Virus record (IMG/VR): IMGVR_UViG_2526164633_000019
Location: 1 to 4,215 of that record
From: a virus
Lineage: Duplodnaviria > Heunggongvirae > Uroviricota > Caudoviricetes
Strand: one strand, 5' to 3'
Length of the DNA stretch: 4,215 bases
Part shown: positions 1 to 4,215 of the stretch, in pieces
Layout of the letters: each line of letters starts with the position of its first letter
How positions within the stretch are numbered: the stretch's first letter is position 1
Notes under the pieces: generated by a model
The model's input: only the letters and a program-made list of their open reading frames with translations
What the model was told of the DNA's origin: nothing
The model's database searches: none
Made by a program: the position numbers and the translations under genes

Positions 1-180
1 ATGCAGCTCGCGCAGAAGGTCGTATAGGTGGGCGTACGACCTAAATACCAAGAAGAAACATGGCAGCAAATGCGGCGATTGCTGGAGAAGGGCATCCCCC
101 GTAAGCAGGTTGCAATCATCTATGATGTGGCTGTTTCCACGCTTTATAAGAAGTTTCCGGCGTCATCCTTTCAATCCTAA
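1..180 (+). pseudogene. Serine DNA invertase (Hin/Gin/Cin/Pin family), 3' end only; 5' part lies outside the window; reading frame disrupted around nt 25-43
   Basis: Frame 1 from nt 28 translates VGVRPKYQEETWQQMRRLLEKGIPRKQVAIIYDVAVSTLYKKFPASSFQS, stop TAA at 178-180. This is the characteristic C-terminal helix-turn-helix DNA-binding domain of Hin-family invertases and, from memory, is closest to e14 Pin. Immediately upstream, the conserved AARAEGRIGGR motif is in frame 3 (nt 3-35, stop TAA 42-44), while frame 1 has TAG at 25-27. Both conserved blocks therefore cannot be read in one frame. Confidence 0.6.
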
Positions 181-197
181 ACCTTGGTTTAAGAGAA
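172..197. other. Crossover site 1 for the invertase (gix/hix/cix-like 26-bp site: 12-bp half-site, 2-bp core, 12-bp half-site), at the invertase-proximal border of the invertible segment
   Basis: CAATCCTAAACC-TT-GGTTTAAGAGAA has the ACC-NN-GGT dyad that defines Hin-family sites. It matches the reverse complement of site 2 at 17 of 26 positions. It overlaps the last three codons and stop of the invertase. Confidence 0.65.
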
Positions 198-1751
198 CTC
201 GGTACCAGCGGTGAAAAGATCCCCCTGTTGAGCACGGCTAACACATGGAGTTCACGCCAGACTTTTAACGGCGGGATCACCGGGGCGCTGACAGGGAACG
301 CCGACACCGCGACGAAATTAAAAACAGCCATAAACATTAATGGCGTCAGATTCGATGGTTCTACGAACATTTCGATACCAACAATTACGTCTAGAGGACG
401 CGTTACTGCGCTTACCGGTACAACGCAAGGTGCTGCTACTGGATTGCAGATGTATGAGGCATACAACAATGGTTATCCGACGACTTACGGGAATGTACTT
501 CACCTGAAGGGAGCTGCATCCACTGGTGAAGGCGAGTTGCTCATTGGCTGGAGTGGCACAAATGGCGCTCATGCACCAGCTTTCATTCGATCCAAAAGAG
601 ATAGCACTGCTGCGGCATGGTCCGAATGGGCACAGATCTATACGTCAAAAGATTCCGTTCCCGGCGTTAATACCAAAGGGAATCAGGACACCTCTGGTAA
701 TGCGGCTACAGCGACCAAATTGCAGACGGCGTGTACTATCAACGGTGTCTCGTTTGACGGTTCTAAAAATATTGAGCTAACGGCGGCAGATTTAAATCTT
801 GAGCAAACTGTAGAATTAGCCGCAGGAGCATTACAGAAAAACCAGAACGGCGCAGATATTCCGGGAAAAGATACCTTCACCAAAAATATTGGTGCCTGCC
901 GCGCATATAGCGCATGGCTGAATATTGGTGGCGATAGTCAGGTCTGGACAACCGCGCAATTTATTTCGTGGCTGGAGAGTCAGGGAGCATTTAACCATCC
1001 TTACTGGATGTGCAAAGGCTCATGGGCTTATGCAAATAATAAGGTCATTACAGATACAGGTTGCGGAAATATTTGTCTTGCAGGTGCTGTGGTGGAAGTT
1101 ATTGGCACTCGCGGCGCAATGACCATACGCGTTACTACGCCGAGCATGTCCAGCGGTGGCGGAATTACTAACGCTCAATTCACTTATATTAATCATGGTG
1201 ATGCTTATGCTCCTGGCTGGCGAAGAGACTACAACACGAAAAACCAGCAGCCTGCATTTGCTTTAGGGCAAACAGGAAGCAGGGTTGCAAATGATAAAGC
1301 TGTTGGCTGGAACTGGAATAGCGGCGTTTATGATGCAGATATCAGTGGCGCATCGACATTAATCCTCCACTTCAATATGAATGCGGGGAGTTGCCCTGCT
1401 GTACAGTTCCGCGTGAATTATAAGAACGGCGGTATCTTTTATCGTTCAGCGCGTGATGGTTATGGCTTTGAAGCTGACTGGTCAGAGTTTTACACCACAA
1501 CCCGCAAACCCTCTGCGGGGGATGTTGGTGCATATACGCAGGCAGAATGTAACTCAAGGTTTATTACAGGTATTCGCCTGGGCGGTCTGTCATCTGTTCA
1601 GACATGGAATGGTCCCGGCTGGTCTGACAGGTCAGGTTATGTCGTTACAGGTTCAGTTAACGGAAACCGTGATGAATTAATTGATACAACTCAGGCAAGG
1701 CCAATTCAGTATTGCATTAATGGGACGTGGTATAACGCGGGGAGTATTTAA
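186..1751 (+). CDS. Silent (off-orientation) alternative side-tail-fibre C-terminal receptor-binding cassette (Sv'-like); no start codon of its own, would be fused to the constant N-terminal fibre region after inversion
   Basis: The open frame runs continuously from site 1 to TAA at 1749-1751. The ORF-track start at 228 is a TTG with no Shine-Dalgarno sequence. The frame through site 1 encodes ILNLGLRE, parallel to VIEYLGLQE encoded through site 2 in the expressed fibre. It contains two copies of a tail-fibre repeat motif (GNAxTATKLxTAxxINGVxFDGSxNI) and ends with RPIQYCINGTWYN, like the expressed fibre. Confidence 0.8.
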   Translation, partial: GLRELGTSGEKIPLLSTANTWSSRQTFNGGITGALTGNADTATKLKTAININGVRFDGSTNISIPTITSRGRVTALTGTTQGAATGLQMYEAYNNGYPTTYGNVLHLKGAASTGEGELLIGWSGTNGAHAPAFIRSKRDSTAAAWSEWAQIYTSKDSVPGVNTKGNQDTSGNAATATKLQTACTINGVSFDGSKNIELTAADLNLEQTVELAAGALQKNQNGADIPGKDTFTKNIGACRAYSAWLNIGGDSQVWTTAQFISWLESQGAFNHPYWMCKGSWAYANNKVITDTGCGNICLAGAVVEVIGTRGAMTIRVTTPSMSSGGGITNAQFTYINHGDAYAPGWRRDYNTKNQQPAFALGQTGSRVANDKAVGWNWNSGVYDADISGASTLILHFNMNAGSCPAVQFRVNYKNGGIFYRSARDGYGFEADWSEFYTTTRKPSAGDVGAYTQAECNSRFITGIRLGGLSSVQTWNGPGWSDRSGYVVTGSVNGNRDELIDTTQARPIQYCINGTWYNAGSI

Positions 1752-1753
1752 CG

Positions 1754-2287
1754 ATGATGCACTTAAAAAACATTACTGCTGGCAACCCTAAAACAAAAGA
1801 GCAATACCAGCTAACGAAACAATTTAACATCAAATGGCTTTATACAGAGGATGGGAAAAACTGGTATGAGGAACAAAAGAACTTTCAGCCTGATACGTTG
1901 AAAATGGTCTATGACCACAACGACGTTATTATTTGTATTGAAAAGGATGTTTCAGCAATTAATCCAGAAGGCGCAAGCGTCGTTGAGGTTCCTGATATTA
2001 CAGCAAATCGCCGGGCTGATATTTCGGGTAAATGGATGTTCAAAGATGGCGTAGTGATAAAGCGAACTTATACCGAGGAGGAACAAAGGCAGCAGGCAGA
2101 GAATGAAAAACAAAGCCTGTTGCAACTTGTCAGGGATAAAACCCAGCTATGGGACTCACAGCTACGGCTGGGCATCATTTCCGACGAGAATAAACAAAAA
2201 TTAACTGAGTGGATGCTCTATGCGCAGAAAGTCGAATCTACAGACACCTCCAGCCTGCCAGTAACATTTCCCGAACAACCTGAATGA
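1754..2287 (+). CDS. tfa: Tail fibre assembly protein (Tfa/U'-like chaperone) paired with the silent fibre cassette
   Basis: 177-aa ORF starting ATGATG at 1754, 2 nt after the stf' stop, with GGGGAG Shine-Dalgarno 9 nt upstream. Its N-terminal two-thirds is highly similar to the convergent ORF 2846-2316 (shared [18 protein letters not shown] and [15 protein letters not shown] blocks); its C-terminal third is divergent. Position directly after a fibre variable region is typical of tfa. Confidence 0.85.
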   Translation: MMHLKNITAGNPKTKEQYQLTKQFNIKWLYTEDGKNWYEEQKNFQPDTLKMVYDHNDVIICIEKDVSAINPEGASVVEVPDITANRRADISGKWMFKDGVVIKRTYTEEEQRQQAENEKQSLLQLVRDKTQLWDSQLRLGIISDENKQKLTEWMLYAQKVESTDTSSLPVTFPEQPE

Positions 2288-2290
2288 GAC

Positions 2291-2320
2291 AAGGCCCGAT
2301 AGCGGGCCTTAATTTTTATT
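2291..2320. terminator. Intrinsic terminator hairpin between the two convergent tfa genes (strong for + strand, weaker for - strand)
   Basis: Perfect 8-bp stem AAGGCCCG (2291-2298) / CGGGCCTT (2303-2310) with 4-nt loop ATAG, followed on the + strand by AATTTTTATT. It lies 3 nt after the tfa' stop. The T-rich tail overlaps the stop codon of the minus-strand tfa. Confidence 0.6.
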
Positions 2321-2846
2321 CAGGCTTTTGTGGCCATTCAGGATTTGCCGTATCCACACGGCTGACCAGAACACTGTAGCGTTCCCATGCTTCCAGTCGT
2401 GTGCGTTCCTCGTCTGTTGCCATATTCAGCCTGACAGCGCGTTCCAGCGGCTGGATGACTGATTCAGCTTCGGAAAGCAATGCGGCCTTTTGTGATTCGG
2501 CCTGTTGTTGCTGTTCGTCTGCCGTATAAATCCGTTTAACTACAGCTCCATCCTTAAACATCCACTTTCCTGAATCATCAGCGCGGCGGTTGGCTGTAAT
2601 ATCAGGAACCTCAACGACGCTAAAACCTTCAGGGTTAAGCGTGGAGGCATCTTTAGTGATGGCGACAATAATATTATTTGCATCGTAAACAATCTTTATT
2701 GTGTCTGGCTGAAAGTTTTTCACTTCCTCATACCAGTTTTTATCGTCTTCGGACCATAACCAGATAACATCAAAATTCTTTGTTAGCTGATATTGTTCTT
2801 TCGTTTTAGGATTTCCAGACTTAATATTTTTTAAATGCTGCATCAT
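2316..2846 (-). CDS. tfa: Tail fibre assembly protein (Tfa/U-like chaperone) paired with the currently expressed fibre
   Basis: 176-aa ORF. Its ATGATG start directly abuts the TAA stop of the upstream fibre gene (translational-coupling arrangement). It is paralogous to ORF 1754-2287 over the N-terminal ~115 aa and divergent at the C-terminus. Confidence 0.85.
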
Positions 2847-4215
2847 TTACACCTGTGCGACGTTATACCATGTGCCATTGATGTATTTTTGTATTGGCCT
2901 GAAGATGGCTTCATCATCGCCATCTACTTCACCAATGATTCTTAATCCGGTAATTGCGTGTCCGGCTTTTTCATAACGACCACCACGCGCCATCAATTGA
3001 ACAACTCGCGTACCCAGGCGAACATCTCTCACATAACGTGAGTCAAAATTACCATAATTGCCGGGAATAACTTGCGCACCGCAAAGCCAGTTGCCATTGT
3101 TGTCCATGTACGCCTGACCATCGGTGCCATTGGCTGTCCTTGAATTATTAATCATGTAAAAACCAAACTGGTAGTTACCAAGTCCACCGACAAAAAATTT
3201 GCGTTCTGCATGGTCTTGTCTTAACAAAGCCTGCGCAGAACTTGTTGATACTGCGTTTCTACCAAAAATGACATTCTGGTTTCGCATATCAATCCATGAG
3301 GTTGAACCACTATTAATAGCAAACCTGTTTGCATACACCCAGGAGTTAGTTGTTATATCTCCTGTAACATCCAGACCATGCCCCATGCTTATCCGACCAG
3401 TTCTAAGGTTAATCGTAAAGGGGCGTAATGGCCCTATATCACCATTTTCTCCCTCATTCTCTCGTGTAGGGATGATATGCAGGCATTCTTCAGAACGGCG
3501 AAAAATGGCACCAAAAGATGAATTAAATATCCTCAGTGCATTGACTGTCGATATTTTTACTTCACTGCTGAAAAGGGCTTTAACAAGAACAGACAAAGCA
3601 TCCCATTTAAGATTCATCAGGTCTTTTGTTGTGGTACTCTGTTTGCTTCTCCATTTGAAATATTCATTGCCGTTGTCGCCTGTTTCAAACCACATGTATG
3701 AATCAGTATCGCTGTCGGCATCATTTTTAAATCCAATCTTTGCCCAGTCAGTATTCCGAATCCAGGCAAGGATTGAGTCGTTTTCAAAAGTAAGCCCACC
3801 GGACAAGGTATCGCCATTCTTTTGCACGGCGTTCCTGGCCCTGTTTACCGTTTCCTGTAAACCGAGGTATTCGATAACAGCGGCAACGGTCGATTTCGCA
3901 AGAATATCCCGCCCGACTTTTGTCAGGGTTGCCAGGCTGGCGACATCATTCCCCGTAAAATACGGAAACTTGTCTGCCGCAGTAGCAAGCCCGGCCAGCG
4001 CCGTCAGGGTGGCATCTTTCGGTTGCTTACCCGCAAGCGCTTTAGTCATGGTGGTCGCAAAATTCGGGTCGTTTCCCAGCGCCGCCGCTAACTCGTTCAA
4101 CGTATTCAGTGCGTCAGGCGACGAGTCTACAAGTGCGGCAATCGCGGCCATCACATAAGCCGTGCTTGCGATCTGAGTATTATTAGTCCCTTTTGGCGCA
4201 GTTGGCGTTGTTGGC
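2847..4215 (-). CDS. stf: Side tail fibre protein in the expressed (on) orientation; 5'-partial, N-terminal constant region continues beyond the window end
   Basis: The minus-strand frame is open from the window edge (…PTTPTAPKGTNNTQIASTAYVMAAIAALVDSSPDALNTLNELAAALGNDPNFATTMTKALAGKQPK…) to TAA at 2849-2847. The N-terminal motif is, from memory, characteristic of lambdoid Stf-type side tail fibres. The ORF-track start at 4154 is an internal GTG, not the true start. The constant/variable junction coincides with site 2. Confidence 0.85.
   Translation of the reverse strand, partial: PTTPTAPKGTNNTQIASTAYVMAAIAALVDSSPDALNTLNELAAALGNDPNFATTMTKALAGKQPKDATLTALAGLATAADKFPYFTGNDVASLATLTKVGRDILAKSTVAAVIEYLGLQETVNRARNAVQKNGDTLSGGLTFENDSILAWIRNTDWAKIGFKNDADSDTDSYMWFETGDNGNEYFKWRSKQSTTTKDLMNLKWDALSVLVKALFSSEVKISTVNALRIFNSSFGAIFRRSEECLHIIPTRENEGENGDIGPLRPFTINLRTGRISMGHGLDVTGDITTNSWVYANRFAINSGSTSWIDMRNQNVIFGRNAVSTSSAQALLRQDHAERKFFVGGLGNYQFGFYMINNSRTANGTDGQAYMDNNGNWLCGAQVIPGNYGNFDSRYVRDVRLGTRVVQLMARGGRYEKAGHAITGLRIIGEVDGDDEAIFRPIQKYINGTWYNVAQV
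3852..3877. other. Crossover site 2 (gix-like), embedded in the tail-fibre coding sequence at the constant/variable junction
   Basis: Plus strand TTCCTGTAAACC-GA-GGTATTCGATAA. By recollection this matches the phage Mu gix site (TTCCTGTAAACCGAGGTTTTGGATAA) at 23 of 26 positions. It is in inverted orientation relative to site 1 and encodes VIEYLGLQE in the fibre frame. Confidence 0.75.

Follow-up and report, generated by a model that had tools for sequence, protein, structure and literature searches.

The closest described relatives of the locus analysed here are the C segment of phage P1 and the G segment of phage Mu, two tail-fibre inversion modules of the Cin/Gin family. In this family a late promoter outside the invertible segment drives the constant 5′ part of the fibre gene (Sc), which likewise lies outside. 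The variable 3′ part that faces Sc, be it Sv or Sv′, continues its reading frame across a crossover site and is co-expressed with its own chaperone (U or U′). Inversion between two 26-bp sites is carried out by a serine invertase with the help of a Fis-bound enhancer. The family also includes Salmonella Hin/hix, the e14 Pin/P segment and p15B Min; what Hin inverts is a promoter and not fibre cassettes. Here we describe a module of this family in a 4,215-nt stretch of viral DNA (IMG/VR record IMGVR_UViG_2526164633_000019, positions 1 to 4,215; hereafter the window). The window is the entire draft contig AIHB01000050.1 of assembly GCA_000250235.2, a 2012-era draft of Escherichia coli DEC12B, so both of its ends are assembly breakpoints and the flanks are beyond reading.

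By gene order and homology, the window is a member of the known tail-fibre inversion modules exemplified by the P1 C and Mu G segments. Judged by the same comparisons, it is not a new kind of system, as each component is 99–100% identical to already annotated sequences and the join between the components alone is unusual. An initial annotation of the window had assigned it to the Mu G/P1 C type of architecture, and family and layout were indeed right: every part that it named was found at its given coordinates, with a Pfam match for every part and matches to P1, P7, Mu and P2-like elements. The same annotation had called the switch complete, with a working pair of sites, and this part of its description does not hold. 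The two sites come from two systems, the contig retains no more of the invertase than its last 60 codons and would not include the enhancer, and the join was found nowhere else in the collections searched. Most probably, the window as assembled represents a known Cin/Gin-type module in the form of a P1/P2-type hybrid with non-cognate crossover sites, locked in the orientation in which it is written.

Crossover sites of two kinds

The segment is bracketed by two inverted 26-bp sites of the Hin family, as had been proposed for it:

172–197, − strand: left site, reverse complement TTCTCTTAAACC AA GGTTTAGGATTG; identical to cixL of P1/P7; central dinucleotide at 184–185.
3852–3877, + strand: right site, TTCCTGTAAACC GA GGTATTCGATAA; identical to the right gix-type site of phage P88 and of the P2-like prophage of E. 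coli ETEC-2264; central dinucleotide at 3864–3865.

The family core motif AAACCNNGGT occurs in the window at these two sites only, and its count is far over chance (three strand-hits against 0.14 expected, a number reached in 0 of 200 shuffles). A search of the window for a third, internal crossover site of the Min or shufflon kind found none. The right site agrees at 24 of 26 positions with what we take to be the gix sequence of Mu, and the two window sites agree at 19 and 21 of 26 positions with what is presumably the Salmonella hixL sequence.

The two sites are equal to each other at 17 of 26 positions. They have the 12-2-12 organisation and the inverted arrangement of the sites of Hin, Gin, Cin and Pin segments, but not the shared central dinucleotide: the core is AA on the left and GA on the right, a mismatch that the initial annotation had already pointed out. 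Comparison with the pairs found in the relatives of the window, which include L009, a P1-like element of assembly GCA_028883595.1, shows where each site belongs (left sites are given as reverse complements):

P1, P7 and L009: left TTCTCTTAAACC AA GGTTTAGGATTG; right TTCTCTTAAACC AA GGTATTGGATAA.
P88 and the ETEC-2264 prophage: left TTCCTGTAAACC GA GGTTTTAGATAA; right TTCCTGTAAACC GA GGTATTCGATAA.
Window: left TTCTCTTAAACC AA GGTTTAGGATTG, which is cixL; right TTCCTGTAAACC GA GGTATTCGATAA, which is the P2-like right site.

In all natural pairs examined, the inner half and the core are identical in both sites, whereas the window sites disagree at 3 of the 12 inner-half positions and at the core.

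Each window site is, however, identical to a site of an element that is seen in both orientations or has a matched pair. Among the P1-like relatives, L005, L007, L012 and L015 carry the segment in one orientation relative to cin, and L006, L008, L009 and L013 carry it in the other. The outer half-sites are swapped between these two groups while the inner half TTCTCTTAAACC and the core AA stay constant, and inversion of L009 in silico between its two cores regained a 12.4-kb collinear match to L005. Complete plasmids display the same orientation polymorphism, some of their matches to the window running from position 1 and others from position 174. Judging by these alignments, crossover does take place at these sites in the parental elements.

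The join between P1-like and P2-like DNA

The closest relative of the window is L009, which is 99.6% identical to it over positions 1–3859 and differs from it at four positions in 1–3794. P7 matches 174–3815 at 98.8% identity, and P1 matches 1–3188 at 89% and 3573–3859 at 94%. Matches to Mu and to the P2-like phage P88 begin at about position 825 and extend rightward, P88 being collinear over 825–4215 at 93.7%. From 3757 to 4215, there are no differences from the chromosomal P2-like prophage of E. coli ETEC-2264 (L014). Position 3756 is C in the window and in L009, and T in the closest P2-type relatives (L014, L067, L087 and L094) and in all but two of the others across the interval. As the window follows L009 to the left of this point and the P2-like prophage from 3757 onwards, the join lies within one short interval:

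3757–3794 (38 bp), no strand: donor-switch interval, P1-like on its left and P2-like on its right.

The left-hand, P1-like part includes a further element that P1 and P7 share with the window:

185–825, + strand: P1/P7-type arm of about 0.65 kb, present in a single copy and encoding the first 204 residues of Sv′.

P1-like elements carry a second, inverted copy of the arm at the opposite end of the segment; the right arm of P1 corresponds to the reverse complement of window positions 174–812 at 81% identity. Self-comparison of the full 4,215 bp found no second arm copy in the window. By its matches, the window as assembled is thus a hybrid, in which the cin end, cixL, one arm and the cassette core are P1-like, and the last ~70–110 bp of Sv, the right site and Sc are P2-like.

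P1 (L001, positions 6321–6328) and P7 (L002) retain the first 8 nt of a gix-type site (TTCCTGTA, window 3852–3859) at the inner boundary of their right arm, and arm sequence follows directly. This remnant looks like a relic of a Mu-type ancestor that acquired the P1 arms at its crossover point.

We found no second copy of the join. No record among 5,426 complete E. coli genomes, the 72,556 plasmids of PLSDB and 50,697 phage records covers more than 91% of the window, and the best matches to 3700–4215 all have both P2-type alleles. A hybrid-specific 101-mer had no match in genome, metagenome and viral contig collections, and none of 95 fetched loci combines the cin and arm side with a P2-like Sc (0 of 95). 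The two junctions that inversion of the window would create, cin-TTCAATCCTAAACCT[T/C]GGTTTACAGGAAAC and arm-TTCTCTTAAACC[A/G]AGGTATTCGATAA-Sc, are likewise absent from complete E. coli genomes, viral contigs and metagenome contigs. The two parental junctions, which served as positive controls, were found in 46 and 31 viral contigs, and the P1-like parent type, unlike the window hybrid, is present in both orientations. Two close relatives of the fibre protein, P0001 and P0004, were considered as further hybrids and rejected, both lying within ordinary P2-like prophages.

Two explanations of the join appear equally plausible to us, each a little short of an even chance. In the first, strain DEC12B has two ordinary elements, a P1-like phage-plasmid whose C segment is complete and a P2-like prophage with a G-type segment of its own, which the draft assembler joined via the short shared stretch by the right site. 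The window being an entire 4,215-bp draft contig, and the absence of the hybrid in either orientation from every collection searched, with both parental junctions common among viral contigs, are consistent with such a chimera, and the single-nucleotide insertion 36 nt from the contig end, described below, hints at a weak consensus. The position of the join points in the same direction: there is one clean donor switch, and it falls in the final 38 bp of identity ahead of the full divergence of the two parents, where an assembler at a fork would place it and where a random homologous crossover in the ~3-kb shared core would rarely fall. This block is, however, shorter than any read of that era, so that spanning reads should have resolved the fork. 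Furthermore, two cores of ~95% identity should have given contig breaks or several donor switches in 825–3757, but the region is uniformly P1-like, with its four differences from L009.

In the second explanation, a P1-like phage-plasmid recombined in vivo with a resident P2-like prophage via homologous fibre-cassette DNA, and the one-armed hybrid became fixed in the Sv-U orientation. This could have happened by a single crossover that produced a cointegrate or by break-induced copying begun at the gix site. A true recombinant would account for 3.8 kb that are coherent with one parent and 0.46 kb that are coherent with the other, with open reading frames (ORFs) in frame throughout. It also agrees with (i) the patchy identity profiles of all relatives, which reflect mosaic exchange among P1-, Mu- and P2-type fibre genes, and (ii) the P1-like gene blocks in the chromosome-sized contigs L004, L009 and L011. 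The lack of a second example in all genomes, plasmids, phage records and fetched loci listed above argues against it, as does the placement of the crossover at the extreme edge of homology; 38 bp is near the lower limit for RecA-type recombination. In its favour, impaired cin/C-segment loci of P1-like plasmids have been described before (PMC6906374).

A third origin, site-specific exchange between a cix and a gix site on separate replicons, was rejected: the donor switch lies 70–110 bp inside the site and not at its core.

Several contigs met in these searches are worth recording in their own right. The P1-like blocks of L004 (GCA_949281595.1), L011 and L009 lie in contigs of 985, 958 and 377 kb, respectively, far above the ~95-kb size of the P1 plasmid. 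In L004, the block ends just after U′ (window-equivalent position 1722) and adjoins chromosomal genes, with a Mu-like transposase about 8 kb off. By their context, these blocks may be either integrated P1-like elements or assembly joins. L024 (IMGVR_UViG_3300012281_000016, 5,293 bp) has the cin-side junction string at both ends in inverted orientation (500–529 and 4765–4794); a real segment should have one such string, so L024 is probably a fold-back assembly artefact at an invertible region. The end-points of contigs in the 95 loci showed no pattern of recurrent breaks at window positions 1 or 4215.

The invertase remnant and the state of the switch

The invertase end of the window has two features:

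1–180, + strand: 3′ end of a cin-type serine DNA invertase gene; last 60 codons (nt 383–561 of cin), transcribed toward the segment.
36, + strand: inserted A causing a +1 frameshift in the invertase gene; translation from upstream would stop after ...GRIGGRTT, with loss of the helix-turn-helix (HTH) domain.

The remnant at 28–180 matches the resolvase HTH_7 family of Pfam (E 2.3e-17), an HTH DNA-binding domain. An exact look-up of its 50-aa protein sequence retrieved contig AIHB01000050.1. This end of the protein is present with near identity to cin, and the catalytic domain is off the contig. The Fis-dependent enhancer is annotated in the 5′ part of cin in the P1 record, and the equivalent region would lie upstream of the contig end. 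When positions 1–240 are aligned to P1 and P7, a few point changes and the insertion at 36 are seen; against L009, the insertion is the sole difference. The disruption of the invertase frame, which the initial annotation had noticed, is thus borne out as a 1-nt insertion at 36 without counterpart in P1, P7, the P7-like plasmid A134 p2, L009 or any of the 95 other fetched loci. The exact frameshift string was sought in genome, metagenome and viral contigs as well as in these loci and occurs in this contig alone. An extra A at 36 that two other loci seemed to share turned out to be an alignment artefact.

Inversion of the window was modelled with cuts at 184/185 and 3864/3865. The fibre ORF stays in frame through the new junction (...EYLGL/RELGTSGEK...) and runs for 638 aa to a stop, so that the coding design is intact. 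The sites are a different matter. An identical central dinucleotide is needed to ligate the inverted product, and one core change blocks ligation in the inverted state (PMC4817059). With cores of AA and GA and three inner-half differences, strand exchange between the window sites would thus not be ligatable in the inverted configuration. We propose that the non-cognate sites and the frameshifted adjacent invertase would together keep the segment locked as written, with Sc-Sv-U expressed and Sv′-U′ silent.

Four considerations weigh against this interpretation. If the contig is chimeric, the cell has two normal switches and there is no locked hybrid. An error in the consensus may underlie the frameshift, which is only 36 nt away from the contig end. 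Invertases of this family (Gin, Cin, Hin and Pin) can complement one another, and one supplied in trans from another prophage could stand in for the broken cin. Finally, work by Iida and Hiestand-Nauer (1986–87) reportedly found low-frequency recombination by Cin between sites whose cores are unequal, accompanied by local conversion; should this apply here, 'locked' may mean strongly reduced and not zero.

Two more active states of the locus can be set against the locked hybrid. The view taken in the initial annotation, that this is a complete and working host-range switch, with recombination between its two sites giving populations in which both fibre types are made, seems very improbable to us. 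The coding parts are all intact, the modelled inversion preserves the fibre frame, each site is identical to one that functions in its own element, and the invertases of the family can replace one another. Yet the AA/GA cores alone should suffice to block ligation, given the effect of a single core change (PMC4817059). In addition, the inner halves are unequal at 3 of 12 positions where natural pairs are identical, cin is frameshifted, and neither flipped junction was present in any collection searched, although both controls were positive. The second possibility, which we consider extremely improbable, is that the hybrid is real and flips at low frequency, with an invertase from a co-resident prophage acting in trans to recombine cixL and gix and the mismatched core being converted. 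If so, a P2-type phage would gain a fibre with the P1-type 204-residue arm and a Mu S′-type tip, and the locus would be a live case in which host-range cassettes are handed on between an integrated prophage and a phage-plasmid.

Fibre cassettes and comparison with known systems

From left to right, the window contains the invertase 3′ end, the left site, Sv′, U′, a hairpin, U, Sv with the second site inside the fibre ORF, and Sc. The features of the segment and of the constant part are as follows:

185–1751, + strand: Sv′, start-less alternative fibre C-terminus, silent; 521 aa; residues 205–521 are 95% identical to Mu S′ (G(−) type).
1754–2287, + strand: U′, chaperone of the silent cassette; 177 aa; 99% identical to Mu U′; Caudo_TAP, E 2e-36.
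2291–2310, no strand: GC-rich hairpin on the two-fold axis between the convergent U′ and U; a T-run follows it only on the + strand.
2316–2846, − strand: U, chaperone of the expressed cassette; 176 aa; 95% identical to Mu U and 98% to P1 U; Caudo_TAP, E 8e-38; PDB 5YVQ_B, E 3.5e-108.
2847–3864, − strand: Sv, variable fibre C-terminus now fused to Sc; 338 aa; 68% identical to Mu S (G(+) type) and 75% to P1 S; PDB 5YVQ_A, E 1.5e-142.
3865–4215, − strand: Sc, constant part of a P2-like (gpH-type) fibre gene; 100% identical to the fibre gene of the ETEC-2264 prophage; runs off the contig end.

The constant fibre part on the right (3865–4215) and the serine invertase end on the left (1–180) thus flank the segment as described initially. 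The near two-fold symmetry of the genes, part of the same description, is also borne out: inverted repeats pair 1750–2100 with 2497–2847 and 1698–1737 with 2861–2900, centred on the hairpin at 2291–2310. The folding energy of this hairpin is −21 kcal/mol on the + strand (z −6.7) and −14.7 kcal/mol on the − strand. An Rfam search of the window for RNA families gave no match.

In the expressed cassette, the minus-strand ORF at 2847–4215, which runs off the right end, contains a Gp34_trimer fibre domain (E 1e-11). Its Sc-Sv protein is 98% identical to tail fibres of 720–792 aa, many of them P2-like. An exact look-up of the edge-truncated fibre protein returned no record. Matches to the Sc region are chiefly chromosomal (1707 places on chromosomes versus 124 on plasmids). 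The database gene calls on this contig (L018) break up the 455-codon fibre frame into a 146-aa minus-strand gene at 2847–3287 and a 296-aa antisense ORF on the plus strand at 3268–4158. The latter is spurious because the minus-strand frame matches full-length fibres at 98%.

The middle of Sv (window 3065–3576, minus strand, roughly residues 97–266) is replaceable. L014 has no homology to the window over 3065–3576 and P1 has none over 3188–3573, while the flanks are 94–100% identical. A non-homologous middle between conserved flanks suggests that receptor-binding alleles are swapped within an otherwise conserved fibre tip.

In the silent cassette, the Sv′ frame is open through the left site, with its first TTG at 228 and its first ATG at 450, and homology to Mu S′ begins at residue 205. 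The database call for Sv′ in L018 starts at the internal ATG at 450 and is labelled 'tail protein 2'. In translation, the P1-type arm (about 294–377 and 702–785, + strand) codes for two copies of a fibre repeat, GNADTATKLKTAININGVRFDGSTNISI and GNAATATKLQTACTINGVSFDGSKNIEL; a Pfam search of the Sv′ ORF found no repeat family over threshold. The unequal lengths of the variable parts (520 versus 340 aa) are explained by the single P1-type arm with its 204 extra residues, without which they would be 317 and 338 aa. The two variable domains had been called unrelated in sequence, and this is true of their middles. They do, however, share their last ~70 aa at 38% identity (E 9e-8), and there is weak similarity over the ~75 aa that follow the Mu-type junction.

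Both chaperones belong to Caudo_TAP, the family of Mu U and lambda Tfa: U′ and U score 125.5 and 129.9 bits against PF02413, for which the cut-off is 22.1, and are 58% identical to each other. The counterpart of U′ in P7 (L002, 4081–4614) is annotated in two pieces, Ua and Ub. The P7 reference copy thus appears to be interrupted, whereas the window copy is whole.

The module itself is textbook biology, as host-range switching by the P1 C and Mu G segments is well established, and a further copy adds nothing new; what is of modest interest is the joining of a P1-type and a P2-type switch. If real, the hybrid documents recombination between a phage-plasmid and a chromosomal prophage via shared fibre cassettes, and it shows how a switch is disabled when such an exchange pairs sites that do not match. 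If the join is an assembly artefact, it serves as a warning that short draft contigs over invertible, multi-copy phage regions can mimic complete systems that are absent from the cell.

The window is most similar to the P1/P7 C segment, with which it shares the cin 3′ end, cixL, the left arm, Sv′, U′, U and most of Sv (89–94% identity to P1). The Sv′-U′ and U-Sv cassettes are of the P1/P7 type, and cin has the same orientation, being transcribed toward the segment in both. It differs in having no cixR (its right site has TTCCTGTAAACC GA and not TTCTCTTAAACC AA), in carrying the left arm alone where P1 and P7 have inverted arms of ~0.6 kb at both ends, and in the +1 frameshift of cin. Its Sc is furthermore not the Sc of P1, to which it is no more than ~70% similar over 4061–4215.

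With the P2-like prophages, represented by Xuanwuvirus P88 and the ETEC-2264 prophage (L014), the window has in common the right site and Sc, and the cassette core is collinear. In contrast to the window, these prophages have gix-type sites with core GA at both ends, no arms, a short Sv′ (219 aa in the relatives looked up) and an invertase of 195–199 aa that is transcribed away from the segment. Thus, with regard to the G-type segments of Mu and the P2-like prophages, the window has a P2-type Sc fused across the site, but a gix-type site (inner half TTCCTGTAAACC, core GA) at its right end only.

The Mu G segment with gin carries the same cassette pair (the Sv′ core, U′, U and Sv are 95%, 99%, 95% and 68% identical at the protein level), and its G(+) S-U complex, the structure of which has been solved (PDB 5YVQ), matches Sv and U. 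In Mu, however, the inverted repeats are 34 bp long and matched, Sc is a different one, and gin points away from the segment. Salmonella Hin/hix and the other members of the family likewise have a serine invertase that works on 26-bp sites with a 2-bp core. Measured against its nearest relatives, the window as assembled is not a complete member of either kind: it has no cixR, second arm or P1-type Sc for a P1 C segment, no left gix or outward-facing gin-type invertase for a Mu/P2 G segment, and no core common to its two sites.

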